NCBI GenBank assembly: GCA_964394405.1
Contig: CAYMVY010000002.1
Span: forward strand, 192,092 to 256,091
DNA length: 64,000 nt
Direction: 5' to 3'
DNA from: an uncultured Gammaproteobacteria bacterium
GTDB taxonomy: Bacteria > Patescibacteriota > Patescibacteriia > Magasanikbacterales > UBA922
Part shown: positions 20,043-55,798 of the stretch, piece after piece
How the letters are laid out: every line of letters starts with the position of its first letter
How positions within the stretch are numbered: position 1 is the first letter of the stretch
Translations under genes and position numbers: made by a program
Notes under the pieces: generated by a model
The model's input: only the letters and a program-made list of their open reading frames with translations
The model's database searches: none
What the model was told of the DNA's origin: nothing

Positions 20043-20045
20043 AGT

Positions 20046-20180
20046 CTATTAACTCAAAGCTTAAAACTCAAAACGCAAAACGATAACTTAAGTCTAAAAA
20101 CTAATTATTATATTTAGTTTTTAATTTTTTAGTGTAGTTTTGAGTTTTGAAATTTGAGTTTTGAAATTTGAGTTTTGCGT
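20046..20180. repeat. AT-rich imperfect-palindrome intergenic element ('caaaactcaaa' family); right arm carries an internal tandem duplication
   Basis: aactcaaagcttaaaactcaaaacgcaaaacgataact ... agttttgagttttgaaatttgagttttgaaatttgagttttgcgtt. Confidence 0.7.
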
Positions 20181-20187
20181 TACACGT

Positions 20188-20595: not shown

Positions 20596-20604
20596 AAAGC
20601 ACTT

Positions 20605-20622
20605 TGTTCGTATATACGAACA
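20605..20622. promoter_or_regulatory. perfect 18-bp palindrome TGTTCGTATATACGAACA: candidate MntR autoregulatory operator overlapping a -10-like TATATA
   Basis: perfect dyad symmetry 10 nt upstream of the mntR ATG; centre reads as a -10 hexamer. Confidence 0.45.
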
Positions 20623-20806
20623 TCACTATATCACACTTGAACACTCTCGTCAAGGATCGAATTATCCACCAAATAAGCATTGACAAAGTGCTCATTTTGA
20701 GATACCCTTTCTTGAGTTTGACTATGCAGCATTCGCGGCACATCAAACTCTCGAGTCGACCAAAAGGAAGACCGAATTCACAACGACACAAAGGAGTACA
20801 ATCGCC

Positions 20807-21022
20807 ATGCCCAATACCATACAGGACCGGAACTCCAATCGGTACGATCTCCCAGAGTTCCCGAAGCGCGGTTCCCTGCGCCACGACGGCATGACCGCCG
20901 CCTCCACCACCTCCCCGTCCAGCAAACGTGGAGGAGAATACCAGGTCGGCCATGACCCGGAAGAGGAGGTCGAACCCACCCAGATGGTCAACCACTTCTT
21001 CGGCCGGGGACGGAGAGGGTAG
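20807..21022 (+). CDS. hypothetical small protein, GC-rich
   Basis: 71 aa; SD AAGGAG 10 nt upstream; promoter-like TTGACA-17-TACCCT at 20683-20711. Confidence 0.3.
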   Translation: MPNTIQDRNSNRYDLPEFPKRGSLRHDGMTAASTTSPSSKRGGEYQVGHDPEEEVEPTQMVNHFFGRGRRG

Positions 21023-21127
21023 GTCGGTTCGCAAGTTTCGAACGCGTACAACCACATACGGGCCACTCTGGTTCCCGCATGACGGAAGTACGCGTTCGGA
21101 CTCTCTCAAAAACGATATTCATTATTC

Positions 21128-21157
21128 AAACGCCTTATGGGCGATTTTTTGTTTTTT
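21128..21157 (+). terminator. intrinsic terminator (copy 1 of a duplicated terminator)
   Basis: CGCC-ttatg-GGCG followed by ATTTTTTGTTTTTT. Confidence 0.6.
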
Positions 21158-21177
21158 AACCTATCCACCCCCTACTC

Positions 21178-21206
21178 TTGACAGCATATTCACTCTATGC
21201 TAGTAT
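21178..21206 (+). promoter_or_regulatory. sigma70-type promoter TTGACA-17-TAGTAT
   Basis: exact -35 consensus, 17-bp spacer, TAnnnT -10. Confidence 0.55.
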
Positions 21207-21292
21207 CTTTTGAAGTTTGGACTGGCTATGCATTCGCTTGCCATGCGACCAGACTTTTTCTGTGACACCTGCGACGAGACAGGAGAGTCCTC

Positions 21293-21478
21293 ATGAAGGA
21301 TCCCCCGATGACCAGCATCAAGGGAAACAATCCCAACATTCCGGCGATGACGAACGGCAACAACCTCGACCGGCCGATGGACGCCGGCACCAAGAAGAAG
21401 GGCACCGACCGCGACCGCTACGCGCGCGCGAAGAAGATCTCGATGAAGGGGCACGGCGGCTCGAAGCCGGCGGCCTGA
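21293..21478 (+). CDS. hypothetical small basic protein, GC-rich
   Basis: 61 aa; SD GGAGAG 5 nt upstream of the ATG; alternative overlapping 98-aa ORF 21217..21513 is low-complexity. Confidence 0.35.
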   Translation: MKDPPMTSIKGNNPNIPAMTNGNNLDRPMDAGTKKKGTDRDRYARAKKISMKGHGGSKPAA

Positions 21479-21517
21479 TCGAGCGCGGCGAGCGAGCTCC
21501 TACCAACCCCTAGACCA

Positions 21518-21677
21518 AAGGAGGTCCTGGTGCGGAAGTACGCAGTGTTCTAGATGGGCTCACACCGAGCCCTCCTCGGCACCTTCCTAGGGCGACAACG
21601 ACGCCGTCGCCCACAACCTCTCAACGGAGGAAAGATGAGGAAGTACGCAGTGTTCTAGATAGGCTCACACCGAGCCT
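21518..21677 (+). repeat. tandem direct repeat (2 x about 42 bp, period 105 bp), each unit = SD + 7-codon mini-ORF M-R-K-Y-A-V-F + stop + GGCTCACACCGAGCC hairpin
   Basis: AAGGAGGtcctgGTGCGGAAGTACGCAGTGTTCTAGATGGGCTCACACCGAGCC at 21518; GGAGGAAAGATGAGGAAGTACGCAGTGTTCTAGATAGGCTCACACCGAGCC at 21626; both in the same frame. Confidence 0.6.
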
Positions 21678-21817
21678 CCCACGCGCCCGCACGCATCCCC
21701 TACCACGACGCAACCAACGGTACGGGAAATGCTTCGGACGCACCTGGCGCCGCGCCCTCGCATGAACTTCGGTTCAAGCGACGGGTGCGGCGCCAGACAC
21801 TCAATTCAATCATTCTG

Positions 21818-21846
21818 AAAACGCCTTATGGGCGATTTTTTGTTTA
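21818..21846 (+). terminator. intrinsic terminator (copy 2, identical core to 21128..21157)
   Basis: AAACGCCTTATGGGCGATTTTTTGTTT. Confidence 0.6.
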
Positions 21847-21861
21847 TATAAGTGTCTTGCA

Positions 21862-21890
21862 TTGACAGAAAGATATAATTATGCTACACT
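21862..21890 (+). promoter_or_regulatory. sigma70-type promoter TTGACA-17-TACACT upstream of the membrane protein gene
   Basis: exact -35, 17-bp spacer. Confidence 0.45.
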
Positions 21891-22058
21891 CTTCCGTTCG
21901 TCTTTGACGAAAGATCTTTACATGAATTTAGCCATTTCCATGCATTTGGTCAGTATTGTGATATTTCAATTTTTGAATTATTGCACAACTGACTAAAAAG
22001 CTGAGTGGTGAAGTTCACTATTTGGTTCATAAGTCAAAATGTCAGCCAGGAGGCAGAC

Positions 22059-23030
22059 ATGTTCGGTAAGCTCTTCGAGGTGTTCAACATCGAGAAGTGG
22101 TCGGGCCTCGGCCTGACGCTTCTCACCTGTGTTCTTCTCATGACGACTGCTCGTGCGCTTCTTGCGCCGGGTGTCGTCGAGTTCCCTTCCGAGCTCGCCT
22201 CGGATGGTGACTACTGGAGTATGATTGCGATGAGCGCACTGCTCATCGCGGTCGATGCCATGCTGATCGTGCTCGTGTCCTGGTCCTCACTCAACACGCC
22301 GAAAGACGTGATGGGTGTCGCCCTCATGGTCGGGTTGACGCATGTCGTCTTCCCGCTCGTGACCTTCGGCCTCACCGCCGGCGCGACCTTCCTCAGCCAG
22401 CACACGGGCCTCCCGATGTGGTTGGGGCAGGGCATCCTCACGGGCATCTACCTCCTCGCGTTCTACTTCGTTGTGTTCCACCTCCGTGAGGTGCATCGCG
22501 GTATCCGCGAGGGCGAGTCGGACAAGCTCAGCTCGGACCAACCCGCGTTCACGCGAGCGTGGCTGCGGGTGATCTGGCCCATCGTGTTTGCGGTCTCGGT
22601 CGACGCCCTTCTGGTGGGACCGGCTAAGATCGCCTTCATGGCCCGCTACACCGAGACGCAGTTCATGATGAGCTTCGTCTTGATCGGCGGGAGCGTGTTT
22701 GTGCTCGTGATGAGCGCTGGCCTCTTGGTCCTCGCCCTCAAGAAGTGGATCGACAACCACGCGCGGATCTCGAGGAAGGTCCACCAGTTCGACTGGCTTG
22801 GGTCACTCCTCCTCGTCCTCGTCTTCATCCACTTCTCGGTCTTCGCCTTGGTGTACGTGCTCTACACGTTCATCCCGAAGGCATGGATCCTCGAACCCCA
22901 GACCATCTGGAGCGCTACCGGCGCCATCTTCCTCCTCTACCTCATCTTCGGACGAGTGGGGGAGATCAAGAAGGCGAGCCTCGAACGGGCTGGACTGGGT
23001 CCGGCCGAAGTCGAGAATGAAGCAGCCTGA
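22059..23030 (+). CDS. hypothetical polytopic membrane protein, GC-rich (about 58% GC)
   Basis: about 10 TM helices; start set at ATG 22059 preceded by AGGAGG-cagac; the ORF-track start at 22005 lacks an SD. Confidence 0.6.
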   Translation: MFGKLFEVFNIEKWSGLGLTLLTCVLLMTTARALLAPGVVEFPSELASDGDYWSMIAMSALLIAVDAMLIVLVSWSSLNTPKDVMGVALMVGLTHVVFPLVTFGLTAGATFLSQHTGLPMWLGQGILTGIYLLAFYFVVFHLREVHRGIREGESDKLSSDQPAFTRAWLRVIWPIVFAVSVDALLVGPAKIAFMARYTETQFMMSFVLIGGSVFVLVMSAGLLVLALKKWIDNHARISRKVHQFDWLGSLLLVLVFIHFSVFALVYVLYTFIPKAWILEPQTIWSATGAIFLLYLIFGRVGEIKKASLERAGLGPAEVENEAA

Positions 23031-23113
23031 TAGCTGAACCGAACAACAGGTTGGGGACGACATCATCATCACATGCGTGATCGGTGATGCCTGTCCCCTG
23101 CCTTAGTCTACAT

Positions 23114-23170
23114 AAAAAGCAGATAGCTAGTAGCAAAATCTTTGATACTGTACTATCTGCTTTTTTATTT
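23114..23170. terminator. bidirectional intrinsic terminator between convergent genes
   Basis: AAAAAGCAGATAG...28-nt loop...CTATCTGCTTTTTTATTTT. Confidence 0.6.
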
Positions 23171-24135
23171 TACGTCACTACAAAATCTACATTTCTAATA
23201 TCGTATACATTTTTTCCTCCACTATACGAAATCGCACTTTGTAAATCTTCTTCTATTTCTTTGAGTTTCTGTTCATAAGTCATATTATTGCACTCAATAT
23301 GGCGCAAAAACCCTTCCACATGATGATTGGTACCCTTATTATACTCAGAGGCTGAACCAAAATAAATCTTTTTTATTTCCCCATCTACACTAATCGTCTC
23401 ACCTGGAGAATCAATGCAGCTACTAAAAATCCCTCCAGCCATGATGAGGTCTGCTCCTGCATGAATTGCTTTTGCGATATCTCCATTATTTTTGATACTC
23501 CCGTCAGCAATGAGAAGTGTCTTCAGGGAATGTTCTTTTTTTGCTTCACTGCATTCCTTTACACATGAATACATCGGGTATGTGAAACCTGTCTTAAACT
23601 TGGTAGAGCATGCAGATCCGCCACCAATCCCCACTTTTACTGCATCAGCTCCCCAATTACTCAAATCCACAAAAGCCTGTTTACTCGCAACATTCCCTGC
23701 GATAATAAAACAATTTGGGTAATATTTTCTTACGTGTTCCAGAATATTTTTGACAGCTGGACTATGGCCATGTGCAATATCAATCGTAATTGCATCAACT
23801 CGAAAATTTTTATCTTTGAGTGTACGGATACATTCATAATCAGCTTCTTTTACACCGAGAGAAAGTGAGATGAACATATCCTGATTTTTACCCACCCAGT
23901 CTATAATTTCTTCGTATGTATAAAAACGATGCAAAATGTAAAAATAATCATGCGTCGCCATCCATCGAGCAAGCATAAAATCAATCGTGCACTTCATATT
24001 AGCAGGCATGATTGGCAGTCGCCAACGACGGGAAGCAAAGGAAAGTGTTGTATCACACTCTGAACGCGAATTTACTACACACATTTTTGGCACGAGCCAA
24101 ATAGACGAGTATTCGAGTGCTCTATCCATAGACAA
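23170..24135 (-). CDS. guaC: GMP reductase (IMPDH/GMPR family)
   Basis: 321 aa; blocks LPIMPANM, TIDIAHGHS, IIAGNVAS, GADAVKVGIGGGSACSTKFKTG align with E. coli GuaC; no CBS insert. Confidence 0.75.
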   Translation of the reverse strand: MSMDRALEYSSIWLVPKMCVVNSRSECDTTLSFASRRWRLPIMPANMKCTIDFMLARWMATHDYFYILHRFYTYEEIIDWVGKNQDMFISLSLGVKEADYECIRTLKDKNFRVDAITIDIAHGHSPAVKNILEHVRKYYPNCFIIAGNVASKQAFVDLSNWGADAVKVGIGGGSACSTKFKTGFTYPMYSCVKECSEAKKEHSLKTLLIADGSIKNNGDIAKAIHAGADLIMAGGIFSSCIDSPGETISVDGEIKKIYFGSASEYNKGTNHHVEGFLRHIECNNMTYEQKLKEIEEDLQSAISYSGGKNVYDIRNVDFVVT

Positions 24136-29932: not shown

Positions 29933-31936
29933 TTACACCAGATCATCAAACGATATTTCCTCATCTTCATTCATTTTCTTTGGCTGACCCTCATTTGCAG
30001 CTGGTTTTGGTGGAGTTGGTGGGACTACTTTTTCCTCTACCACTGGTGCTGGTTTTGGTAAATCAACTTGCGGAGCAGGTCGAGGTGGAATGATTGGACG
30101 TGGTTCAGTAACACTAGGTTGTATTGGACGAACTTGTTCTTGCCCCACTTGAGAATTTCCTCCTTGATTTTGTGATTGACCCGAAAAACCTGACGACTGA
30201 CCACCTTGTTCACCCCCACCCTTATTACCTCTTCGTCTGCGTCTGCGTTTTTTTCCAGTTCCTGGAGTACCTGGGGCTTGAGAAGCTCCTCCTTGTCCAA
30301 AGGAAGAAGCCGGAGTAGTAGATTGTAGAGATCGTGATGGATTCTCGCTTCTAGACTGAACATGACTATCCCGGGGTGGTAGATCATTTTTAGGTTTCAG
30401 ATCGCTCAGAGAAATAGTCTTTTCTTCTCTAACTTCATTATTTTTTGGTTCAGGCTTTTTTTCCTCGTTTCTCTTTGGAGATTCCTGCTTTTGCATTATA
30501 GGTTTCGGTGCGGGTGGTAATTGAGGTTTTGGTTGTTCACTTGGTAATTTTTTCAATTCACTCATCCCTGAACTAATGAGTGGAGTTTCAATATCTTCTT
30601 CTCCTGCATCTTGCGCATCAGTCTCAGACATACTCCAACGACCAATCTTTTCTTCTACCAATTCTCGCTTGCGACCATATCGTTCACGTGATATTCGAAT
30701 CACCTTTTCCGCTGAATCAGTCGGATGTGCAAGTGGTGGTAAGGTCATAGCACTAAATGGATGTGACGCCACCCCATCAATCATGAGTTTTAGAATAATC
30801 TGGTATTTCGTGAGATTTACAATATCTTCTTCGGTAAATGTGGGAGTAAACTCTTTTACAAGCATCTCAGCATCAGCACCACCGATACGGAATGTTACAA
30901 TGGTTCCGACGTTTCCAAACACTGCATCAGCTACGACTTCGTCCAGCTGTGCCACATATTGATGCGCCATAATCAGACTCAGACGATATTTGCGAGCTTC
31001 TGATAAAATATTTGCAAACGATGGAGTTGCAAAATTTTGAAACTCGTCCACGTAGAGGAAAAAGTCCTTGCGATCTGGTTCTGGCGTATCAACGCGTTCC
31101 ATTGCTGATAGTTGCAGCTTGGTAATAAGCATACCTCCAAGCAAACGACTATTATCTTCACCAATTCGTCCTTTTGACAAATTCATGATAAAAATTTTCT
31201 TTGAGTCCATGATGTCGCGTACATTGATCGTTGATTTTACCTGCGCGACCATATTTCGAATAATTGAGACGGATAAGAATTGTCCAATTTTATTCTGGAT
31301 CGGTGCTACTGCTTCTTTTGCATATCGCTCATCATAATTCGCAAATTCATCACGCCAAAAAGCCTTTACTACCGGATCTTTGAGTTGACGCACGACTCGT
31401 TTCCGATAATTTTTGTCAGACAATAGACGATTGACCCCAAGTAGAGTAGATCCTGGGTAATCAAGTAACGCGAGTAGTGTATTGTTTAAAATATATTCCA
31501 TTCTCGAACTCCACACATCTGGCCAGATTTTCTTGAATGTACCCATGAGTCCTGAGGCGACCAAATGTTTCTGCTCTTCTGTCTTGACCTCAAGAATATT
31601 GAACCCAATCGGATTGTCGATATCAGCGGGATTCAAATATACTACATCATTCAAACGCCAGGATGGAATATGATTAATGATTTTTTCTGCAAAATCTCCG
31701 TGCGGGTCTACCAGTCCGATCCCATGTCCAGCGTAGATATCAGACAAGACCATATTCTCCATGATCGTTGTCTTTCCCATACCTGTTTTTCCAATCACAT
31801 ACATGTGACGACGTCGATCATCTGTTTTAATACCAAAACGACGCATTTGATTGCGGTAGGTTGTCTGCGCAAATACACAAATTTCCTCTCGCTCTTTTGG
31901 AACTTGTCCTGGAGTTGTCAAATGTGAGGTTGGCAT
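29933..31936 (-). CDS. P-loop ATPase, TraD/VirD4 (type IV coupling protein)/HerA-FtsK-like, with a long disordered Pro/Gly/Gln-rich C-terminal tail
   Basis: Walker A VIGKTGMGKTT, Walker B FFLYVDEFQNF, LIMAHQ motif; last about 230 residues low-complexity. Confidence 0.55.
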   Translation of the reverse strand: MPTSHLTTPGQVPKEREEICVFAQTTYRNQMRRFGIKTDDRRRHMYVIGKTGMGKTTIMENMVLSDIYAGHGIGLVDPHGDFAEKIINHIPSWRLNDVVYLNPADIDNPIGFNILEVKTEEQKHLVASGLMGTFKKIWPDVWSSRMEYILNNTLLALLDYPGSTLLGVNRLLSDKNYRKRVVRQLKDPVVKAFWRDEFANYDERYAKEAVAPIQNKIGQFLSVSIIRNMVAQVKSTINVRDIMDSKKIFIMNLSKGRIGEDNSRLLGGMLITKLQLSAMERVDTPEPDRKDFFLYVDEFQNFATPSFANILSEARKYRLSLIMAHQYVAQLDEVVADAVFGNVGTIVTFRIGGADAEMLVKEFTPTFTEEDIVNLTKYQIILKLMIDGVASHPFSAMTLPPLAHPTDSAEKVIRISRERYGRKRELVEEKIGRWSMSETDAQDAGEEDIETPLISSGMSELKKLPSEQPKPQLPPAPKPIMQKQESPKRNEEKKPEPKNNEVREEKTISLSDLKPKNDLPPRDSHVQSRSENPSRSLQSTTPASSFGQGGASQAPGTPGTGKKRRRRRRGNKGGGEQGGQSSGFSGQSQNQGGNSQVGQEQVRPIQPSVTEPRPIIPPRPAPQVDLPKPAPVVEEKVVPPTPPKPAANEGQPKKMNEDEEISFDDLV

Positions 31937-47554: not shown

Positions 47555-48310
47555 TTAGTTCGTCTGCATACCAAGCGTGAACGCATTCCAATTGTAGGTA
47601 GTGAATATCTGATCTACAAACCGATCAATACTAAATATTGCTCGCTCTGCTTCACATGTTTTTCTCTCTGTCTCATTGTAATTCGCGCATTGTGATTGTT
47701 GCACTTCGAATTTGAAGGTGACTGTTCCTTTTTCATACGCGGTCACATATGTGTAGGTATTATAGGTACTCCCTGCAGCACCCTCACTCTGTGTTGTTAC
47801 ACAATATTCTTGTCTACCGACAGTATGTTTTTCTGTTTTTCCACTTACTACCACACTCTCATCGGTGCCTGCAAGATTACATGCATACGGGGTAGCAGAA
47901 GAAATAGTAACAAACGCCTTATCAGTACTACGCATGTATTTGGTAGGCAACATATCAATATAGAGGAAAGATTTTGCTTGCTCACCATCGATGGCTACGC
48001 CCCATGCAATTTTATTTTCTCCACCAATGCTCGTTGGACATGCTTCGAATTCACACTTGGGTCCAGTACGTCCTACATACGATCCATCGGGACACATCAT
48101 CGTATCCATCGTACATGCCACTGGCTCGGTCGTCGTAGTATTCACGACCACAACGGTTGGAGGTGCTGAGGGACCATAGAGAACTTTGTCGTAGACGATG
48201 TAGCCGAGTGCTCCAATAAGTGCAAGAATGATGACAACAAGTAGTGCTTTCATATGTACGGTGCTTAAGAGTGATAGTCCTAGTGTAGCACGGTATACCA
48301 TTGTTGTCAT
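47555..48310 (-). CDS. Cys-rich secreted/membrane-anchored protein, paralog B
   Basis: shared block CTMDTMMCPDGSYVGRTGPKCEFEACP; the true start is possibly the internal MKALLVVIIL (about 48253). Confidence 0.5.
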   Translation of the reverse strand: MTTMVYRATLGLSLLSTVHMKALLVVIILALIGALGYIVYDKVLYGPSAPPTVVVVNTTTTEPVACTMDTMMCPDGSYVGRTGPKCEFEACPTSIGGENKIAWGVAIDGEQAKSFLYIDMLPTKYMRSTDKAFVTISSATPYACNLAGTDESVVVSGKTEKHTVGRQEYCVTTQSEGAAGSTYNTYTYVTAYEKGTVTFKFEVQQSQCANYNETERKTCEAERAIFSIDRFVDQIFTTYNWNAFTLGMQTN

Positions 48311-48322
48311 TCTATCTCCCTC

Positions 48323-48724
48323 TTATACGTCATCAATCATTCTCCGCCCCCGCTTCTTTTCGCCTGTTATTTTCTTTGCCGTGAGCCGTCGTTCTTTTGA
48401 GGCATATGTCCGTCTCGTTGGACGGCGGATCTTCTTTGGTTTCAAGGCTGCACCCACGAGCGCGTGTAGTTTTGCTATAGCGACTTCCCTATTCTGGGCT
48501 TGTGATCGCTCTTCTTGTACATCGATCATGAGCTCATCATCCATATTGATGCGATTCTCGAGCTGGCTTCGCACGATTTCTTTTTCTTCGTACGTTAAAA
48601 CAGTGGACGCGCCAATATTCCAACGAAGTTGCACTTTGGTGGCAACTTTGTTGACATTCTGCCCACCTGGACCGCCGGAGCGTGCAGTGTCGATCGTGAA
48701 TTCTGATTCGGGGATTCGAAGCAT
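48323..48724 (-). CDS. arfB: alternative ribosome-rescue factor ArfB (peptidyl-tRNA hydrolase, GGQ family)
   Basis: GGPGGQNVNKVATKV GGQ motif; basic C-terminal tail; 133 aa. Confidence 0.8.
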   Translation of the reverse strand: MLRIPESEFTIDTARSGGPGGQNVNKVATKVQLRWNIGASTVLTYEEKEIVRSQLENRINMDDELMIDVQEERSQAQNREVAIAKLHALVGAALKPKKIRRPTRRTYASKERRLTAKKITGEKKRGRRMIDDV

Positions 48725-48733
48725 ATAACTTTA

Positions 48734-48833
48734 TTGACAGTGATAATGACGTGTGTTATAATTTATACAGTTTTGGTTTCCAGCATAGTGCTGGTAGCTC
48801 CGCTCCTCGCTTCGGCGAGGAGCTGTTTTTTTA
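48734..48833 (+). ncRNA. candidate small RNA (about 65 nt) defined by a perfect consensus promoter and an intrinsic terminator
   Basis: TTGACA-17bp-TATAAT at 48734-48762; transcript carries a CCAGCA-tag-TGCTGG hairpin and a GCTCCTCGC-UUCG-GCGAGGAGC hairpin followed by T7; no ORF. Confidence 0.4.
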
Positions 48834-49244
48834 TTCAAATTGTTTGAGAAATTCAGACCTAATATTCATGAACTGTTCATGATTCAGTTTTGTCTTTTTA
48901 CGTAACAATCGTTTTGCACTAATTACTCTGCCTTGCGTAATATTGACACTACGCAACTCTCCATCAAGGGTAACATATACTTGATACCACGGTCTTTCTT
49001 TTTTTATTTTAGTGCTTAACGGAAGAATAAAGCACATATCCGACGAATATTTTTTGAGCACGACTATTGGTCGCTCAAATAGTTCATTTTTTCCATCTAT
49101 TTCGTATCCTATATTTTTCCCTAATGCTGCCCACCAAATTTCTTTTTCACGAAAATATTTCTCTTTTTCAGAAGATTCAACATGATGTCTAATCTTCTTT
49201 TTTGTCCACGCAACAAAAACCTGCGCGATTTTCTGAACATCCAT
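48831..49244 (-). CDS. PemK/MazF-like family protein (putative endoribonuclease toxin fold)
   Basis: EIWWAALGKNIGYEIDGKNELFERPIVVLK resembles the MazF/PemK N-terminal consensus; no adjacent antitoxin ORF. Confidence 0.4.
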   Translation of the reverse strand: MDVQKIAQVFVAWTKKKIRHHVESSEKEKYFREKEIWWAALGKNIGYEIDGKNELFERPIVVLKKYSSDMCFILPLSTKIKKERPWYQVYVTLDGELRSVNITQGRVISAKRLLRKKTKLNHEQFMNIRSEFLKQFE

Positions 49245-49286
49245 ATACCCTCCTTTTATATGAATTAATTATTGTAAACGATCTAT

Positions 49287-49745
49287 TTATTTTTCCGCAA
49301 TTTCTTTCACCTTCTCGAGCGCTTTTGGCCATATATCAGCAAACATTTCTGAGTACTCTTCATTTGTATCAATATCGACGATTACCTGCGTACCCCCGTC
49401 GCGGCTAACAAATGTATAATTCTCAAACGCTGGTGTCCATTTCTTCACCTCGTCACTCGTCGTGTCTTCTACTCCATCGTTAATCATTCCATAGTGCTCG
49501 AGGGAAATAAATTCATAGGGACGGTTCTCGGCAACATGACTCAACATGCCACCGATTTTTGACGGATCAGCAGGATTGGGCCCTAGGAATCTGATGTTTG
49601 AGCCCTGATTCCAATCACCTTCAAACCATCCGCCATGTTCATTGAACGGGAGTGTCCATTGGCGATAGGTGGCGTCCTGAATCATCGTATTCCAGACTTT
49701 TTCTGGTGATGCTGCAATAAATTTTTCAAAATGTAATTTTTTCAT
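49287..49745 (-). CDS. SRPBCC (AHSA1/START-like) domain protein
   Basis: 152 aa; EKVWNTMIQDATYRQW N-terminal motif. Confidence 0.65.
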   Translation of the reverse strand: MKKLHFEKFIAASPEKVWNTMIQDATYRQWTLPFNEHGGWFEGDWNQGSNIRFLGPNPADPSKIGGMLSHVAENRPYEFISLEHYGMINDGVEDTTSDEVKKWTPAFENYTFVSRDGGTQVIVDIDTNEEYSEMFADIWPKALEKVKEIAEK

Positions 49746-49829
49746 AAAATTTAGTTACATACGAATTACTAATCCCGACGTACGTCGGGACGAATTTACG
49801 AATTAAATCATTTAGAATAATTAGGTTAA

Positions 49830-50479: not shown

Positions 50480-51379
50480 TTACTCTTCATCAAAAAAATC
50501 ATTGTCCATTTCCTTTATACTATATTGTATTTTTATTTGAACACCAACTTCATATTTAATCATCAAATCAGCAAGCTGTTCACCGTCGATTAAAATTATT
50601 TTATGGTTAAAAGCACTTTTTGCTTTATGTATTGCAGAATCATCAAAAATCGAAGTTGTTACAAATATACCTTTACTCACATCACCACTCATTGCTCCAA
50701 TAAAATTTCTAATATCCGGTTCCCTAACTTTATTTTTTTCATTATATCTTTTTGCCTGGATATAAATTTTCTCAAGACCTAATTTGTCTTGACTTATAAT
50801 ACCATCTATTCCACCATCTCCAGATTTTGGTGTTTCTTGAAAATCACCATACCCCATTTTTTGAAATAAAATTAAAACAACTTTCTGAAAAAAATAAGGA
50901 TTAGTGTTGTGCAATTTTTCAAGTAAGTCACTTTTTAAAGTTTCTTGAATATCTCTAAAACCAATATCAATCATGTCTTGTGGAGAAAATTTCTCCGAAA
51001 CTGCTTTACCTATTTCCTCTTTTGTTTTTTCACCTCCTCCAGATTTAAAAGCGACAAAAGATGGGTACTTAAATAAAAATTCCACATCAACACTCGCTAA
51101 ATTTAAGGAAAGAACTTTTTGACCCTCTTTGGTAATTTTTATCTTTCCTCTTTCAGGCTGTTCGACAAGTCCCGCTTTTTTTAAATATGTCCTGCCCCAT
51201 GATACCCTATCAAAAAACCTACTATAACCATTTGATACCGTCTCCTTTTTTTCGTCTTCAGTTAAATTAAAATATTCTTTTTCTAAAATATCTGAAACAT
51301 CTTTAATAGTCCTCATCTGTTCATCACCTAAAACTTTCAATATAGGTAACATTGTCTCATCGAATTTTGGAATTGCCAT
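50480..51379 (-). CDS. mrr: Mrr-family type IV (modification-dependent) restriction endonuclease
   Basis: N-terminal Mrr_N winged helix (MAIPKFDETMLPIL); C-terminal PD-(D/E)xK core GDGGIDGI...QAKRY. Confidence 0.8.
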   Translation of the reverse strand: MAIPKFDETMLPILKVLGDEQMRTIKDVSDILEKEYFNLTEDEKKETVSNGYSRFFDRVSWGRTYLKKAGLVEQPERGKIKITKEGQKVLSLNLASVDVEFLFKYPSFVAFKSGGGEKTKEEIGKAVSEKFSPQDMIDIGFRDIQETLKSDLLEKLHNTNPYFFQKVVLILFQKMGYGDFQETPKSGDGGIDGIISQDKLGLEKIYIQAKRYNEKNKVREPDIRNFIGAMSGDVSKGIFVTTSIFDDSAIHKAKSAFNHKIILIDGEQLADLMIKYEVGVQIKIQYSIKEMDNDFFDEE

Positions 51380-51395
51380 ATCTTTTGTTTTATTT

Positions 51396-52166
51396 CTAAT
51401 TTATTTTCTGAAAAATAAATAAATGTTCGTGCATAATCAAAAGGAAATTGTTTTCTTTTGATCTTTTTACCCAAAAACCTGTTGCCTTGCAATTAAACTG
51501 TCGCTTGATGATATCTTCTTTCAGCGCAAAACCTGTCTGCAAACACTTATCCATTATTTTATATGCAAGCGGCTGATACATCTTGTTGCGTCTCGTATCC
51601 CCCATAAGAATTGCGCAATATTTTCCCTTTTTCAGCACACGAAACAATTCTTTTACTACTTTTCCCATTTCTTCTACAAAAAGTTCAATATCATGGATAT
51701 TAGACAGATCGTCCTCTAGTTTTCCTTCACTGTATTTCACAATATCAGCGTATGGCGGATGTGTGAGTACGAAATCAATCTCTTCATCTTTGATAAAATG
51801 CAAATTTCGAGCATCGCATTTCTTTATCCGCTGTTTTGCTTTATTATCAACCTCAAAATTCAGTGCATTTTTTGTGCGCTCGAGTGCTTCTTCATTCACA
51901 TCAACACAAGTGATATGGCGATTCAATATTTTTGCCTCAATCGCTGTGGTACCACCACCAATCATGCAATCAAGTAAATGATCACCCTCTTTGGAATATC
52001 GCAAAATCAAATTCCGAGCAACCTCTGGTGCCCAGTTTCCACGCCAATCTGATTTGTGTGTTGCCCAGTTTCCACGACGAGGAAATGCCCAAACAGTTGT
52101 GCATTCTAGTTCAAAATTATCTGGGTGAAGTTTTACCTCCTTTATTTTCTGCATTTTCATTACCAA
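51396..52166 (-). CDS. DNA methyltransferase, N4/N6 family (DpnA-like second methylase; 256 aa)
   Basis: SAM motif LLDCMIGGGTTAIEA and catalytic THPPY; 7-nt overlap with the upstream REase gene; length equals S. pneumoniae DpnA (256 aa), figure quoted from memory. Confidence 0.7.
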   Translation of the reverse strand: MVMKMQKIKEVKLHPDNFELECTTVWAFPRRGNWATHKSDWRGNWAPEVARNLILRYSKEGDHLLDCMIGGGTTAIEAKILNRHITCVDVNEEALERTKNALNFEVDNKAKQRIKKCDARNLHFIKDEEIDFVLTHPPYADIVKYSEGKLEDDLSNIHDIELFVEEMGKVVKELFRVLKKGKYCAILMGDTRRNKMYQPLAYKIMDKCLQTGFALKEDIIKRQFNCKATGFWVKRSKENNFLLIMHEHLFIFQKIN

Positions 52167-53026
52167 TTTAATTTACTAAGAACACCATTTTCCACCATAT
52201 TCAAGTTAAACACATACTCATTATGATTATAAGTTTCTTCTAGTGGTCTTTTCGCTGTTTTCCAACCCAATCCATCTGTTATCCATACAAAATCAATATC
52301 TTGAGATTTGAGTTCAGTATATAAATCTCTAAATTCTCCAGCAACTGCTTTTAGTTTTGATCCTCCTCCGTTATAAAAATTAACTTCAAATAATTTCAAC
52401 TTCTTGCTCGAAGGATTAAAGACAGCAAAATCAAAACTTCTCTCAGATTTGTTAACCCGAACATCAATGCCCCACTTATTCCTAATATCTGTTGCTCTAG
52501 ATTGTCTTAAATATTCAAGATTATTTTGTTCACAAAGATTTTCTATATGAGCCTCCACTATTTTTTCCATAAGACTTCCTCCTCGATTTTTTCTACCATT
52601 ACTATCCAGACCAACTTCGACACCAATGACGTAATCAACTAAATTCTTTATTCCCTCTTTTTTAAATAAATTAACCAAACCTGTTTTTTCAAGAAAATTA
52701 AAATACTTTTCCGAAGCACTATCACCCACTTCAGGATTACGGAAATTAAGGAGCTCAACACTACCGTCACTCAAATTAAATATTTCTAATTCTTTTTCAC
52801 GAACTGCTAGTAACACAGGTAATGCTTTTACAATATCAGGATTACTCACAAATAACTTTTTAAACTGTGATTTTAAATCCTCTTTTCCCAAGAGATAATT
52901 CAACTTATTGAGAATAATTTCAAGTTCCGCACCTCCTGCAAAAACTTTCTCCCAATTTACAAAATAATCCCAAGTTTTAATTGAATTTTTAAGCGTAGCT
53001 ATTAAATTTTGAAAATCCATCTTCAT
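52160..53026 (-). CDS. DpnII/MboI-family type II restriction endonuclease (GATC), 288 aa
   Basis: length and gene context (between the Dam-like and the second MTase, as in the dpnM-dpnA-dpnB cassette); the DpnII family is assigned from memory of the family, not by a search. Confidence 0.55.
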   Translation of the reverse strand: MKMDFQNLIATLKNSIKTWDYFVNWEKVFAGGAELEIILNKLNYLLGKEDLKSQFKKLFVSNPDIVKALPVLLAVREKELEIFNLSDGSVELLNFRNPEVGDSASEKYFNFLEKTGLVNLFKKEGIKNLVDYVIGVEVGLDSNGRKNRGGSLMEKIVEAHIENLCEQNNLEYLRQSRATDIRNKWGIDVRVNKSERSFDFAVFNPSSKKLKLFEVNFYNGGGSKLKAVAGEFRDLYTELKSQDIDFVWITDGLGWKTAKRPLEETYNHNEYVFNLNMVENGVLSKLNW

Positions 53027-53029
53027 ACG

Positions 53030-54778
53030 TTAAAACATTTTAATTTGTTTGAATATTTTTTCACCTAAATCACCACCTCTTTTTTTAATTGCCACTTCCG
53101 GATTATCTACAAAAATATTTCTGTATTCACCTAGATCTCGATTAAATTTAAATTTTGATTTTGAATAAATATTTTCAATTTTCTTATCTAATATATCGTT
53201 ACCGGCATCATTATTATCCTGTTCATGCAGTAACGTTAAATTACCAATTTTATTTACAAATCCAGCAACCTGTTCTTTGGTGAACCCCCATTTTACTGGG
53301 TTCTGTGGGAGAATGTGTTCAATATTTGGATCTAAGATAGCTATCCCTCTATCACTAAAATCATAATTCCTCATTACTTCTGTAAGCAGATAATCAATTA
53401 ACTTCGAATCAGACCCATACTCTAGATTATTAGAAAAATTTTTCACAAATTCGTCCATTTTATTCACTAAAGAGAATAATGTTTTAAATTTTTTTCCAAC
53501 TTCTCGCTGATAATCTACTCCGCTATAACGTGTTGCACTCTCACATATAGAAGCAAATATCTTTTCATAATCAGATGGATTAACACTTACAAATTTAGCC
53601 AGTATGGCAAAATTAAGAAGTCTAACAACATCCTCACGGAAATTCCCGGTCTTATAACTTGAATCGTTTAGTTTTTTACTATACAGAGCAAGTAAAACTT
53701 CAAATACTTGCTCTAGTCCGTTTAGATGCCTAAACACTCTTATTATTCTCTTTGTCTTTTCATCTTTTTTTAATAAAGATAAATTTCCATCATAATCTTC
53801 AAATCGAAATCCTATATATATTTGAGCATCCTGGAGTAGTTCTTTCGTGAATTTCAAAACATCATTACCTGATTTTCGCTCAATTTTTTCTTTTTTAATA
53901 ATTTTAAAAAGTCTAGAACTGGAAATAAGCCCATTTCTGGAAATCCAGTAGTGTCTTAGAAATTTCGGAAAAAGAACGGTCTTTGTATTCTCGAATAGAG
54001 ATTCAATTTGACTCCAATTTATTTCAATACTCTCTCGTATACTCCTTGTTTGTGTTGATTTTAATACAGCATTTTTTAATAGATCTGCAACCGAAAGACC
54101 CAAGCCAGTAGAGTTCAGTCCTTCAAAAAGATCATACACGTCATTTTCTGATCTTACAACAATAGCAATAAATTGTACCGATAATATCTTTTGGATCAAT
54201 TTATCTACCTCATCTTCTTTTTTATCTTTTATCTCTTTTTTCACCAAAGTAACAATATATCTAAGATTAGACAGGTATTTAGATTGATTATCATCAAGTT
54301 TTCCATCGAATTTGTCTAAACCAATAACATCTGGGCTTTCTATTAAATTCTGATATATCTCAATTAAATTTTCCTTTCCTGGAATAAGACGGGGATGTTT
54401 CTGTTGTGTTCTAGGGTTTCTCCAATATAAATAGTCATCAACAAGATTAATTAATTCCTTGATAGAGTTAGTAATATATTTCTCCTCATATTGAGAGAAG
54501 ATATATTTAAAAGCAATCAAAAATAAAGAGATTGTTGTTAATCTTTGTTGTCCATCAACAATGACCAGACTATCATCTGACTCTTCAGATGGCTCAAGAC
54601 AGACAAGGTTACCTATAAAGTACCCGTCCTCAGCCTCCACCAGAACTTCCCATAGTTCTCCCACATGAGAAGTCTTCCATGCATATGGTCTTTGGTTATG
54701 GGGCATGGAGAACTTTTTATAAGTATCACAAAGTGTTGAGTAAGTATAGGGTTTAGTATCAACAAAATTATTTATCAT
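53030..54778 (-). CDS. GmrSD/BrxU/SspE-like DUF262 + DUF1524 protein (ParB-like NTPase/nuclease plus His-Me finger)
   Basis: N-terminal DUF262 DGQQR motif (IVDGQQRLTT); C-terminal DUF1524 HxxP (IEHILPQNP). Confidence 0.8.
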   Translation of the reverse strand: MINNFVDTKPYTYSTLCDTYKKFSMPHNQRPYAWKTSHVGELWEVLVEAEDGYFIGNLVCLEPSEESDDSLVIVDGQQRLTTISLFLIAFKYIFSQYEEKYITNSIKELINLVDDYLYWRNPRTQQKHPRLIPGKENLIEIYQNLIESPDVIGLDKFDGKLDDNQSKYLSNLRYIVTLVKKEIKDKKEDEVDKLIQKILSVQFIAIVVRSENDVYDLFEGLNSTGLGLSVADLLKNAVLKSTQTRSIRESIEINWSQIESLFENTKTVLFPKFLRHYWISRNGLISSSRLFKIIKKEKIERKSGNDVLKFTKELLQDAQIYIGFRFEDYDGNLSLLKKDEKTKRIIRVFRHLNGLEQVFEVLLALYSKKLNDSSYKTGNFREDVVRLLNFAILAKFVSVNPSDYEKIFASICESATRYSGVDYQREVGKKFKTLFSLVNKMDEFVKNFSNNLEYGSDSKLIDYLLTEVMRNYDFSDRGIAILDPNIEHILPQNPVKWGFTKEQVAGFVNKIGNLTLLHEQDNNDAGNDILDKKIENIYSKSKFKFNRDLGEYRNIFVDNPEVAIKKRGGDLGEKIFKQIKMF

Positions 54779-54781
54779 ACT

Positions 54782-55798
54782 TTAATAGTTTGTCACTAAA
54801 ACTTCAGTGATCTTCCCTCTATTTGCACTCTTCGAATTTATCGCTCTTCCAGCCTCCACTTTTGAAATTCGAACCCCTTTATGTCCTGAATAAATTTTAT
54901 TGATAAAAGGGGTGTCAGAATTAGAAAGCATTACAAAACAACCACGCTTGTGCAATTCTAAGAACGTATTCCGTAGTTCTACCTGTTCTTTATCAAGAAA
55001 ACTATCTTTTGTATATGATGTAAACGAGGCGGTCTTGCTCACTGGATAGTATGGCGGATCGAAATAAATAAAATCACCTTTTTTTGCTTTTTTCAGAACC
55101 GCTTTATAATCTTGATGCTTTATTTCTACATTCTGCAATGCTTTTGAGACTTTCCTCAGGTTCTCAGCATCACAAATTAATGGATTGGTGTATCTGCCAA
55201 ATGGAACATTGAATTCTCCCCTGCTATTGACTCGGTACATTCCATTGAACCCAGCTCTATTAAGAAAAATAAATCGAGAAGCAATTTGTAAATCCGATAG
55301 TTTTTTTGGATTCTGCGAACGAACTTTCAAGAAAAAATCTTTATCGTATTTATATTTTTTCAAAGACGTAATCAATCCTTCAACATTATTTTTTATTACA
55401 TTATATGTTGTTACCAACTCAAAATTCATGTCCGAAAGAAATGCTTTTTCTGGAAGTAAATCGAAAAAGACTGCGCCACCACCAACAAATGGTTCAAAAT
55501 ATCTTCCTTTTTTTGGATCAAACTTCTCCGGAGGATATAAATCAAGCAATCTAAACTGTTTTAACAATTGACGTTTTCCACCTACCCATTTCACAAATGG
55601 TTTTGGTCGCGCATCAATTATTTTTGCAATTTCTTGTAAAAAATCAGTCGCATTCGACACCATTCCCAAAACACGCTTAGCATAAATAGTATTGATATCA
55701 AAAACTTTTTGGATTTCTTTCACCTTTTGATTATGCGTCATATGTAAGCATGGGTTTACTATGATTTCATAGTACCATATAAACGCTTTTTTGTTCAA
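54782..55798 (-). CDS. dam: Dam-family N6-adenine DNA methyltransferase (GATC-type, DpnM-like)
   Basis: FVKWVGGKRQLL SAM-binding motif, FDPPYY catalytic motif; the ORF-track start is probably about 45 codons too long. Confidence 0.85.
   Translation of the reverse strand: MNKKAFIWYYEIIVNPCLHMTHNQKVKEIQKVFDINTIYAKRVLGMVSNATDFLQEIAKIIDARPKPFVKWVGGKRQLLKQFRLLDLYPPEKFDPKKGRYFEPFVGGGAVFFDLLPEKAFLSDMNFELVTTYNVIKNNVEGLITSLKKYKYDKDFFLKVRSQNPKKLSDLQIASRFIFLNRAGFNGMYRVNSRGEFNVPFGRYTNPLICDAENLRKVSKALQNVEIKHQDYKAVLKKAKKGDFIYFDPPYYPVSKTASFTSYTKDSFLDKEQVELRNTFLELHKRGCFVMLSNSDTPFINKIYSGHKGVRISKVEAGRAINSKSANRGKITEVLVTNY

Follow-up and report, generated by a model that had tools for sequence, protein, structure and literature searches.

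Type III toxin-antitoxin systems (ToxIN, CptIN, and TenpIN) combine an endoribonuclease toxin with an RNA partner, have no protein antitoxin, and display co-evolution of RNA and toxin. ToxN and CptN have a Kid/MazF-like fold, and in ToxIN and CptIN this MazF-like fold is inhibited by RNA. The type III antitoxin is a tandem-repeat array encoded on the toxin-gene strand, upstream of that gene and with a terminator in between, and the toxin itself processes it. In the type I systems txpA/RatA and bsrG/SR4 of the Firmicutes, the RNA antitoxin is encoded convergently with its toxin, is complementary to it at the 3' end only, and has a strong promoter and a terminator of its own. Weinberg and colleagues reportedly described, in 2017, a pemK RNA motif that accompanies pemK genes in Firmicutes. 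The main text of Weinberg 2017 does not mention this motif.

[quoted passage not shown] In citing papers (PMC10470494, PMC7826846), CjrA of this strain is presented as a type I antitoxin, an antisense sRNA, and both toxin neutralization and replicon stabilization are reported for cjrA/cjpT. Table S12 of Dugar et al. 2013 (PMC3656092) gives, from dRNA-seq and northern blots, a pVir sRNA named CJpv3 (minus strand, 31119-31043, 77 nt). The present analysis concerns a predicted small RNA of about 62 nt, with its own promoter, that is convergent with a MazF/PemK-fold gene in a 64-kb stretch of DNA, here called the window. The two are proposed, with a probability of roughly 0.7, to form a toxin-antitoxin cassette in which the RNA is the antitoxin and most likely acts as an antisense RNA.

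Organization of the Toxin Gene and Its Convergent RNA

The toxin gene (48831-49244, minus strand) is the sole MazF-like gene in the window. It encodes a 137-aa endoribonuclease-like protein of the MazF/PemK fold with an extra N-terminal helix, which Pfam assigns to PemK_toxin only (4e-09; no ToxN/AbiQ, CptN, or TenpN assignment) and which NCBIfam and PADLOC do not recognize; NCBI labels members of the family 'type II toxin-antitoxin system PemK/MazF family toxin'. The relation to MazF by sequence is remote (E about 2.5e-4 over residues 37-132). A PDB profile match to B. subtilis EndoA aligns the catalytic residues, namely Arg58 of 'ERP' and the Thr/Ser of 'PL(S/T)T', and the top 50 PDB fold matches returned by Foldseek for the AF2 model (pLDDT 85.8) are all MazF. 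The N-terminal helix (residues 3-23 of the model) is basic, rich in Trp, Lys, and His, and conserved in the toxin family, whereas canonical MazF is without it. The locus shares with type II MazEF and PemIK the MazF fold and the positions of the catalytic Arg and Thr/Ser, but it departs from them in the extra helix, in the lack of mazE or pemI, and in having an RNA as its conserved partner. A phage origin of the toxin was rejected, with 0 relatives found in 2.9 million viral contigs.

No protein antitoxin gene of the mazE/pemI type lies beside the toxin gene in the window; a 42-nt spacer separates it from an upstream AHSA1-like gene, and downstream there is only the RNA. About 40 homologous toxin genes each have a different upstream context, often with an unrelated gene directly against the start codon. 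The family as a whole is one without a protein antitoxin gene, and most of its members also lack a Shine-Dalgarno sequence.

The initial annotation described a perfect sigma70 promoter driving a hairpin-rich RNA of about 65 nt, without an ORF and with a UUCG-capped terminator and T7 tract at its end, between the minus-strand arfB and MazF-like genes and convergent with the latter. Each of these features was recovered. The -35 hexamer TTGACA (48734-48739, plus strand) is 9 nt from the start codon of arfB on the other strand (48323-48724, minus strand; an ArfB-type RF-1 domain protein), and a 17-bp spacer separates it from the TATAAT (48757-48762) of an extended -10 element, TGtTATAAT (48754-48762, plus strand; TG at 48754-48755). 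The exact TTGACA-17-TATAAT pattern (48734-48762) occurs once in the 64 kb as compared with 0.01 occurrences expected from shuffles, and the only 12/12 promoter match within 44-54 kb is that of the sRNA. The promoter is near-consensus and probably constitutive.

The predicted sRNA (48767-48832, plus strand; about 62 nt, range ~60-66 nt) would start at A48767 or A48769 and end within the T-run. Its first hairpin, P1 (48775-48799, plus strand), has GGUU/AGCU as its basal helix and CCAGCA/UGCUGG as its distal one, with a U/U mismatch between them and UAG in the loop; the CCAGCA-TAG-TGCTGG hairpin of the initial annotation (48780-48794) is the inner part of this longer helix. The motif GCUCCG (48797-48802, plus strand) runs from the end of P1 through a CC linker into the base that opens P2. 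The second hairpin, P2 (48802-48823, plus strand), is the stem of an intrinsic terminator, GCUCCUCGC-UUCG-GCGAGGAGC (in DNA letters GCTCCTCGC-TTCG-GCGAGGAGC, followed by TG and T7), and together with the T7 tract (48826-48832, plus strand) it is the sole strong intrinsic-terminator match nearby. The final two T of this tract complement the stop codon of the toxin (TAA, 48833-48831), so that the RNA gene directly adjoins the toxin ORF. A 61-nt RNA folds at -30.3 kcal/mol (z = -5.0), a stability reached by 0/200 shuffles, and the window RNA (48769-48829) is the top match of the covariance model R1 across the whole window, which holds no second or orphan copy by this search.

The architecture resembles txpA/RatA and bsrG/SR4 in that the RNA gene is convergent with the toxin gene and has a strong promoter and terminator of its own, but the toxins of those systems are hydrophobic membrane peptides of <60 aa rather than a 137-aa soluble MazF-fold RNase-like protein. 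With type III systems the locus has in common a (predicted) endoribonuclease toxin, an RNA partner, the lack of a protein antitoxin, and co-evolution of RNA and toxin. In contrast to the type III arrangement, the window RNA is a single unit (no tandem repeats occur in 48300-49800) that lies beyond the 3' end of the toxin gene, on the other strand and with a separate promoter, and the toxin falls in Pfam PemK and not in ToxN.

That the segment might be a chance promoter beside an ordinary terminator, or else a small protein gene, was considered in view of the AT-rich genome, in which intergenic terminators are common, and of an AUG near the 5' end of the RNAs of the main class (ACAAAUGG). A perfect promoter is expected only 0.01 times per window, however, and this reading is also opposed by the conservation and covariation in about 80 loci described below, by a terminator directed away from both flanking genes, and by hairpin lengths that vary by non-multiples of three; it has next to no probability, and the comparisons in effect refute it. 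Mechanical ORFs of 35-43 aa do run across the RNA segment, but their starts precede that of transcription and they show no conservation, and the absence of an ORF holds in practice. A small peptide was likewise rejected: the frame from the AUG across the linker differs between loci, and window-type RNAs have no AUG. Judged from sequence, the promoter and hairpins make up a genuine small RNA gene with a predicted transcript in the source organism.

The Rfam scan named as a check in the initial annotation matches no family to the RNA, either in the window or in homologous loci. In the window, nothing but tRNAs passes the gathering score; Rfam 15 returns no relevant match for 48600-48950 at E up to 10 and nothing consistent for 19 + 4 homologous loci (CPR loci and Campylobacterota plasmids) at E up to 1. 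The RNA family is not in Rfam. It is like the pemK RNA motif in being a structured RNA genetically associated with PemK-family genes, but the covariance model of that motif has no match in the window or in the 23 homologous loci at permissive thresholds.

Linkage, Conservation, and Mobility of the RNA

The comparison set comprised 80 metagenomic loci with 83 toxin homologues (36-59% identity) and unrelated neighbors. A promoter-driven RNA of this kind accompanies about 80 of the 83 toxin genes; as a rule it is convergent, with 0-3 nt between it and the stop codon. For 67 toxin genes the covariance model or a motif places the RNA convergent at the stop codon, within a few nucleotides in all of these loci (gap of 0 nt in 22 and of 1 nt in 15). 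At 3/83 toxin genes (L079 and L093/94) it is upstream and divergent only, with none downstream, and its promoter is 6-40 nt from the toxin start codon. At nearly all of the remaining genes the RNA was recognized by eye or as a variant; only L096 has nothing. All R1 matches in 358 kb adjoin such a toxin gene, and the RNA subtype tracks the toxin clade in 79/80 nearest-neighbor comparisons. Departures from the usual layout include RNA copies on both sides of the toxin gene (L028 and L030), one L028 copy that lies directly at the stop codon of a Fic-domain gene instead of a MazF-like gene, two apparent tandem RNA units in L093, and an additional bidirectional terminator between the toxin stop and the RNA core in L034, L048, and L062. 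In CPR bacteria the RNA is almost always found beside one MazF-like toxin family.

Of the two roles suggested in the initial annotation, an action on the MazF-like gene is thus the one favored by comparative evidence, namely the linkage to toxin homologues in unrelated contexts, while that of a general trans-acting regulator finds no support. A trans-acting sRNA or regulator of arfB that lies beside the toxin by accident would have its own strong promoter and terminator, as seen here, and transcription from a -35 hexamer so close (9 nt) to the start codon of arfB might disturb expression of that gene. In the 80 other loci, however, the RNA goes with the toxin gene and not with arfB, arfB relatives without the toxin have no RNA, and no orphan copy exists in the window. 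RNA pairing to the cognate toxin translation-initiation regions is also no better than non-cognate pairing (median rank 17 of 38, p = 0.07), and such an accidental neighbor is accordingly very improbable. Pairing in trans to the start region in an anti-Shine-Dalgarno manner was rejected as a candidate as well; a Shine-Dalgarno sequence is missing from most of the toxin genes, and cognate duplexes have no energy advantage over non-cognate ones.

Promoter, hairpins, and terminator are kept, with compensatory changes, beside homologous toxin genes in dozens of contexts, which bears out the initial view of a strong sRNA candidate. Across 63 homologous loci the -35 hexamer is TTGACA in 39 and TTGACT in 16, the promoter matches at >=10/12 positions in 57, the predicted +1 is A in 59, and the median RNA length is 59 nt. 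In a plain MAFFT alignment, 83.5% of cells pair as compared with 67% when shuffled; the covariation score is 0.44 (0.21 when shuffled), a value reached by 0/500 shuffles, every slid register scores lower, and the result was repeated on 63 distinct sequences. RNAalifold returned no structure from a plain MAFFT alignment of 53 RNAs, because the variable hairpins are misaligned, and the evidence for structure comes instead from a 20-sequence alignment, an explicit structure, the covariance model, and per-sequence folds.

By these measures hairpins P1 and P2 both covary. In the main class, P2 has double changes at 6-7/8 pairs, and compensatory changes in P2 are seen in L107 (GCAUCUCGC/GCGAGAUGC), L027, L028, and others. 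Among the class-B relatives, which are of the window type, P1 forms in 13/13 despite differing distal sequences, and a basal P1 G.U pair that fits this strand only is present in 12/13; all 13 RNAs adopt a similar fold although their stems differ. The linker GCUCCG(AG) is nearly invariant across the RNA family; its main-class equivalent, UCCGAG, is invariant in about 60/61 sequences, and the unpaired parts ACAAAUGG and UCCGAG are nearly invariant across toxins that are 30-50% identical. The loops are mostly stable UUCG or GNRA tetraloops.

Toxin gene and sRNA together form a two-gene cassette (48725-49286, ~560 bp) inserted between the AHSA1-like gene and arfB. In relatives whose arfB is 73-88% identical (L007, L008, L012, and L013), just 3 nt separate the stop codon of the AHSA1-like gene from the start of arfB and the cassette is absent; arfB relatives without the toxin are also without the RNA. 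The arfB neighborhood is restricted to the close lineage of the window (the window, L001-L005, L107, and L011), with the cassette present in L001-L005 (too similar to the window to inform) and L107 and decayed in L011. Conservation of the promoter, to which the initial annotation had tied its proposal, is seen at the orthologous locus L107, which keeps the hexamers, the 17-bp spacing, and the TG even though the spacer sequence has diverged. The RNA 5' tail and P1 of this locus are 35/35 identical to those of the window, as compared with 82% for arfB and 63-65% for the C-terminal half of the toxin, a pattern of purifying selection on the 5' half of the RNA; a recombination breakpoint lies within the module. 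In L011 the toxin is reduced to its last 46 codons, while both the RNA and its promoter have stayed intact and compensatory changes have occurred (a P1 distal helix of UCAGGU/ACCUGA in place of CCAGCA/UGCUGG), and decay of this kind is what one expects of a toxin-antitoxin pair.

From such comparisons the cassette of toxin and RNA is clearly mobile, which raises the question of whether the two-hairpin element might primarily be a DNA site, for attachment or recombination, that moves the toxin cassette, with the RNA incidental. The cassette is inserted between genes that abut in relatives and is found in unrelated contexts everywhere; it adjoins tRNA genes in L060 and L080; copies of the element flank the toxin in L028 and L030, as after site-specific integration; and besides the breakpoint within the L107 module, other palindromic inserts occupy the same AHSA1-like/arfB junction in L009 and L010. 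Yet a DNA site has no need for a near-consensus -35/-10 pair at fixed distance, a +1 A, and a one-way U-tract in about 60 loci, nor for G.U pairs, which keep pairing on one strand only. No recombinase is associated with the element, and the homologous element of pVir is an expressed 77-nt RNA. A DNA site as the primary function is very improbable.

The pVir Homologue

The antitoxin-less PemK-like gene on pVir of C. jejuni 81-176 (30634-31038) is a homologue of the window toxin family. The window toxin matches the pVir protein by tblastn at 30% identity (E 1e-8), and hhalign of A2 against it gives 97.7% (E 2.1e-12) over columns 10-133 versus 7-128, with the N-terminal helix included. No antitoxin is annotated among the pVir neighbors of the gene. 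CJpv3 is convergent to the PemK-like gene, ends 4 nt past the toxin stop (at 31038), and starts at exactly the position predicted here from its promoter. Helicobacter and Nitratiruptor plasmid homologues have the same gene layout, with compensatory changes.

In pVir of IA3902, a YafQ-type protein pair occupies the same slot. The abstract of Shen et al. 2016 (Mol Microbiol 101:909) is said to place virA/virT in IA3902 and cjrA/cjpT in 81-176, and the YafQ-type pair agrees with this placement. By position, CjpT would be the PemK-like protein of pVir, CJJ81176_pVir0047 with accession WP_011117588.1, and CjrA would be CJpv3; a literature search on cjpT found no paper using that name.

The toxins of the window and of pVir are homologous over their full length, including the N-terminal W..KK helix that is not in canonical MazF; neither has an adjacent protein antitoxin gene, and each is convergent with an sRNA (77 nt on pVir, ~62 nt as predicted in the window). 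Like the window RNA, CJpv3 has its own sigma70-type promoter with a TG, a 6-nt single-stranded 5' tail, and several hairpins, the last of which is GC-rich and ends 0-4 nt from the toxin stop. The two RNAs differ in that CJpv3 has three hairpins (the window RNA has two), no U-tract, and no GCUCCG(AG). In sequence and shape, the CPR RNAs and CJpv3 have no detectable homology. R1 matches the CPR RNAs and not CJpv3, but RNA sequence is highly variable even within CPR, so this is weak evidence; all that a CPR variant RNA class has in common with CJpv3 is its ending, '...GGGG-A(G)AAAUC-stop'. The hosts also differ, with Patescibacteria/CPR chromosomes on one side and epsilonproteobacterial plasmids on the other. 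The window RNA is most likely the antitoxin of a CjrA/CjpT-like module. The extended -10 TG, the inserted two-gene cassette, the widespread RNA family, and this Campylobacter homologue are all points beyond the initial annotation.

Possible Modes of RNA Action

We infer that the cassette would be transcribed in the source organism, that the protein would be toxic, and that the RNA would neutralize it in an antisense mode. The near-consensus promoter would produce an RNA made up of a single-stranded 5' tail, a variable P1, the GCUCCG linker, and the terminator P2. In the window, no toxin-strand terminator precedes the RNA region, and the two genes are convergent with zero spacing. Lacking a terminator of its own, the toxin gene would be read through into arfB, so the toxin transcript would carry the exact complement of the RNA as a 3' UTR or intercistronic stretch. 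Pairing of the RNA with this complementary stretch of the toxin mRNA would leave less toxin mRNA or less translation, and if the cassette or its transcription were lost, the short-lived RNA would disappear and the RNase would act. By analogy, the most likely mode is the antisense one published for pVir CjrA, which is called type I.

A possible but less likely mode is that the RNA antitoxin acts on the MazF-fold RNase by direct binding, in a type III-like role of pseudo-substrate or decoy. The GCUCCG(AG) linker might occupy the RNA groove of the toxin or be cut in it, and the basic N-terminal helix might grip a hairpin. Such binding would be consistent with the co-variation of RNA subtype with toxin clade and with the conserved helix that canonical MazF does not have, and a MazF-like fold is already known to be RNA-inhibited in ToxIN and CptIN. 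Several further features favor direct binding and count against a purely antisense action. The near-invariance of the unpaired ACAAAUGG and UCCGAG across very divergent toxins is not something that pairing in cis would demand, and invariant unpaired motifs of this kind, unexplained by cis-antisense action, also set the window RNA family apart from txpA/RatA and bsrG/SR4. Most of the loops are stable tetraloops, which are typical of protein-bound structured RNAs, and not kissing loops. The linkage of RNA and toxin survives the switch to an upstream-divergent position in L079 and L093/94 (the apparent tandem units of L093 recall ToxI repeats), and in L034, L048, and L062 the additional terminator sets the toxin mRNA apart from the RNA core. 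On the other side, the sole studied homologue is described, in the citing papers, as an antisense (type I) antitoxin, and where the RNA is upstream and divergent, it would still have an antisense relation to the toxin 5' UTR.

The more specific proposal, of a structured protein-binding antitoxin that is not or not only antisense, with the linker as a recognition or cleavage motif and the N-terminal helix docking the RNA, is tentative and somewhat doubtful. If true, it would define a non-repetitive, convergently encoded, type III-like class, widespread both in CPR and on plasmids of epsilonproteobacteria, and 'type I', the label published for cjrA/cjpT, would be only a partial description.

Genes of this family bear the label 'type II PemK/MazF family toxin' wherever they are annotated, yet they lack a protein antitoxin, and their conserved partner is a structured small RNA, unannotated and not in Rfam. 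Literature searches for a CPR RNA antitoxin or an orphan MazF found nothing relevant, and this would be the first well-supported small-RNA gene family for the little-understood CPR/Patescibacteria, with a predicted RNA-controlled toxin-antitoxin system. The approximately 80 natural RNA-toxin pairs, with their subtype co-variation, provide material for testing direct RNA neutralization of MazF-fold toxins. The CPR family is also tied to a module that, as reported in the citing papers, stabilizes a Campylobacter virulence plasmid.

The sRNA gene and its flanking genes

The sRNA gene lies on the plus strand between two minus-strand genes: an ArfB-type gene (48323-48724) and a PemK/MazF-like toxin gene (48831-49244), the neighbors proposed in the initial annotation. 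The promoter comprises a -35 element, TTGACA (48734-48739), and a -10 element, TATAAT (48757-48762), separated by a 17-bp spacer, with an extended -10 TG ahead of TATAAT. The exact TTGACA-17-TATAAT pattern occurs once in the window (0.01 expected from shuffles), and this promoter is the sole 12/12 match within 10 kb. It is conspicuous on the plus strand because nearly all genes of the window are carried by the minus strand. The predicted RNA (approximately 48769-48829) folds into two hairpins, P1 (48775-48799) and P2 (48802-48823), at -30.3 kcal/mol (z = -5.0); P2 and the T-run that follows it form the sole strong terminator-like site nearby, and the T7 tract ends in two T that are complementary to the toxin stop codon. 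The consensus promoter, spacing, hairpins, and T7 tract that had been claimed are thus all present in the sequence at the sites assigned to them.

The 137-aa product of 48831-49244, the sole toxin-family gene in the window, belongs to the Pfam family PemK_toxin. A PDB profile search reached B. subtilis EndoA/MazF at an E-value of only 2.5e-4 (residues 37-132), and in that alignment the catalytic residues correspond: Arg in “ERP” and Thr/Ser in “PL(S/T)T”. In the AF2 model (pLDDT 85.8), the predicted MazF barrel is preceded by a helix (residues 3-23) with conserved Trp, Lys, and His; the top fold matches of the model are all MazF. The predicted mRNA-cutting toxin is encoded directly upstream of arfB, a ribosome-rescue factor for truncated mRNAs. 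The two genes are probably co-transcribed, and the sRNA -35 element and the start codon of arfB are 9 nt apart. This adjacency is found in this lineage alone and may be coincidental. Just upstream of the cassette (about 1.2 kb away) is a minus-strand defense island (50480-55798) of low GC content (0.32-0.34) that encodes Mrr, an N6/N4 DNA methylase, a DpnII endonuclease, GmrSD, and a Dam-type methylase. Elsewhere, positions 20000-24000 have a GC content of 0.48-0.49, well above the window mean of about 0.41. Few ORFs are on the plus strand, and one of these, at 22005-23030 (341 aa), falls in this stretch and matches nothing in Pfam.

Several other identities were considered for the locus. A peptide gene was rejected because the frame is not conserved and RNAs of the window subtype lack an AUG, which bears out the earlier view that no ORF is present. 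There are no tandem repeats at 48300-49800, as a repeat array would require, and no relative of the toxin occurs in 2.9 million viral contigs, which argues against a phage-borne module. The Rfam scan that had been suggested as a check, extended to homologous loci, matched no family to the RNA.

An RNA family that accompanies the toxin genes

Aligned toxin homologues, used as the query for a scan of metagenome contigs, identified 80 loci (36-59% identity) with unrelated neighbors, and each locus was read on the strand opposite the toxin, just beyond the stop codon. A recurrent module is found there, in which a strong promoter precedes an RNA with a median length of 59 nt and the consensus ACAAAUGG, variable hairpin, CUCCGAG, variable GC-rich hairpin, CG, U-run. 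The promoter score is at least 10/12 in 57 of 63 loci; the -35 element is TTGACA or TTGACT in 55/63, and the predicted +1 is A in 59/63. A covariance model built from 20 family RNAs has 61 matches (E < 1e-4) in 358 kb, all antisense to and adjoining a toxin-family gene. Its best match in the window is exactly 48769-48829, and the same search found no second copy in the window.

The RNA converges on the stop codon in 67 of 83 toxin genes, leaving 0 nt between the two in 22 cases and 1 nt in 15, and is solely upstream and divergent in three. Downstream sequence is absent for two genes; the remaining 11 include two with an RNA recognizable by eye, eight with a variant RNA (the same 5' half, a different 3' half, and no U-tract), and one (L096) with nothing. 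The RNA subtype tracks the toxin clade in 79 of 80 nearest-neighbor comparisons.

Covariation was tested on a MAFFT alignment fitted to no structure. The proposed pairs are 83.5% paired (67% in shuffles), with a covariation score of 0.44 (0.21 in shuffles; 0/500 shuffles reach 0.44). Registers slid by 1-3 columns are all much worse, and double changes occur in six of eight P2 pairs. Aligning 63 distinct sequences to the model leads to the same conclusion. The same unpaired U-C-C-G-A, an opening G-C pair in P2, and a G following P2 recur without change in about 60 of 61 sequences. The window subtype, A-N-(A/U)-UUUGG, P1, GCUCC, P2 starting with GC, and U-run, is common to 12 other loci; all 13 RNAs fold individually to one shape with differing stem sequences, and their basal G.U pairs can form on the sRNA strand only. 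The promoter and hairpins, whose conservation the initial annotation had left to be checked, are kept in relatives with compensatory changes.

The arrangement varies at some loci. In L093/L094 (2298-2440, minus strand) and L079 (1525-1620, minus strand) the sRNA precedes the toxin gene in divergent orientation, and no sRNA follows that gene; two tandem units seem to be present in the L093 RNA (...CCCUGAGG... and ...CCCCGAGG...). The RNA overlaps coding sequence at some loci: in L063, L078, L081, and L100 the toxin frame continues through the sRNA antisense, producing C-terminal tails (e.g., ...FRGPRVPNGNL), and in L084/L085 the stop codon is inside the P1 loop. At L028, a main-type sRNA copy with its promoter (2316-2371, minus strand) terminates at the stop codon of a gene for a 381-aa Fic-domain protein (motif HPFLDGNGRIGR). 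This copy precedes a MazF-like gene by about 110 nt, and that gene is itself followed by an sRNA of the other subtype. RNAs flank the toxin gene on both sides in L030, and in L108 the module is followed by genes of the HTH_17 and Fic types. The RNA may partner with toxins of more than one type; alternatively, these copies may be remnants of cassette turnover.

Insertion and putative recombination at the arfB locus

Homologues of both flanking proteins are assigned by their sources to Candidatus Magasanikbacteria or Patescibacteria. In four relatives (L007, L008, L012, and L013) with arfB 73-88% identical to that of the window, the AHSA1-like gene, which in the window is upstream of the toxin, stops 3 nt before the arfB start; 48725-49286 (about 560 bp, containing the toxin and RNA genes) is therefore, by this sequence comparison, an insertion. 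The copy beside arfB is a clean recent insertion, new here, and the cassette is also present in near-identical strains. In L011 the toxin is cut to its last 46 codons, with promoter and RNA intact and a P1 of UCAGGU/ACCUGA rather than the CCAGCA/UGCUGG of the window.

The same locus in L107 carries the cassette with a toxin 65% identical, and by this comparison the module is a mosaic. Identity is 82% in arfB, 100% in the 5' tail and P1 (35 nt), 78% in P2 (with compensatory differences), and 79% in the promoter region, where hexamers, spacing, and TG are kept and the spacer differs. Toxin codons 1-50 are 90% identical, whereas codons 51-137, the C-terminal half, are 63-65% identical. This pattern points to a putative recombination tract (48802-49094) across the C-terminal half of the toxin and the adjoining P2.

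Other small palindromic MITE-like inserts (e.g., GTCATCCCTGCGAAAGCAGGGATC...ATTCCCGCTTTCGCGGGAATGAC) are found at the same AHSA1-like/arfB junction in L009 and L010, within the roughly 150-200 nt that precede arfB (locus positions about 2300-2500); in L047 such an insert precedes the toxin gene. This junction appears to be a hot spot for insertions. A tRNA gene is directly upstream of the toxin gene in L060 (615-687) and L080 (548-631), consistent with cassette insertion beside tRNA genes.

The sRNA as a candidate RNA antitoxin

We consider the sRNA to be the RNA antitoxin of the MazF-like toxin in a two-gene cassette, with a probability of about 0.72. No protein antitoxin gene accompanies the toxin: the upstream contexts all differ, and the toxin frame often begins directly beside an unrelated gene. 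Among plasmids, tblastn found toxin homologues only in Campylobacter, Helicobacter, and Nitratiruptor. The C. jejuni 81-176 pVir gene (NC_008770.1, 30634-31038) is homologous over its full length, N-terminal helix included (hhalign 97.7%, E 2e-12); it is the sole pVir gene annotated as a toxin-antitoxin component, and none of its neighbors is annotated as an antitoxin. This gene and many database entries are labeled “type II toxin-antitoxin system PemK/MazF family toxin” without an accompanying protein antitoxin gene. Downstream of the pVir gene, in convergent orientation, hairpins follow a TTGATT-17-TGaTATAAT promoter, a layout that the Helicobacter and Nitratiruptor homologues keep with compensatory changes.

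Using dRNA-seq, Dugar et al. (PMC3656092, Table S12) list CJpv3, a 77-nt northern-detected sRNA on the pVir minus strand (31119-31043). CJpv3 starts exactly where the promoter predicts and ends 4 nt beyond the toxin stop. In IA3902, whose pVir is otherwise syntenic, a YafQ-type protein pair occupies the same slot. This fits the abstract of Shen et al. 2016, which reportedly places virA/virT in IA3902 and cjrA/cjpT in 81-176. We strongly infer that CjpT is the pVir PemK-like protein and CjrA is CJpv3.

The probability of an RNA antitoxin divides roughly between two modes. An antisense (type I) antitoxin, which would act on a toxin transcript carrying its full complement, is a tentative reading that falls somewhat short of an even chance. 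Papers citing Shen et al. 2016 (PMC10470494 and PMC7826846) describe CjrA as an antisense sRNA and type I RNA antitoxin on 81-176 pVir. The geometry also favors this mode: the toxin gene lacks its own terminator, and its transcript, which would continue into arfB in the window, is therefore expected to contain the full RNA complement. Cognate RNAs pair with the toxin translation start region no better than non-cognate ones do. The less likely mode, direct binding of the toxin in a type III-like manner, is suggested by the invariant unpaired motifs, the stable tetraloops, the extra basic helix of the toxin, an extra bidirectional terminator that insulates the toxin mRNA in L034, L048, and L062, and the upstream, divergent RNAs of L079 and L093/L094. 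At these upstream-divergent loci the RNA promoter and the start codon of the toxin are no more than 6-40 nt apart, so the RNA may still be antisense to a 5' UTR there.

Modules that pair a MazF-like toxin with an RNA antitoxin are a known kind, with one studied case, that of pVir. What is new is that the family is widespread in CPR chromosomes, and that the RNA partner forms a conserved family of structured RNAs. This RNA family is missing from both Rfam and genome annotation, and its two to three subtypes co-vary with the toxin.
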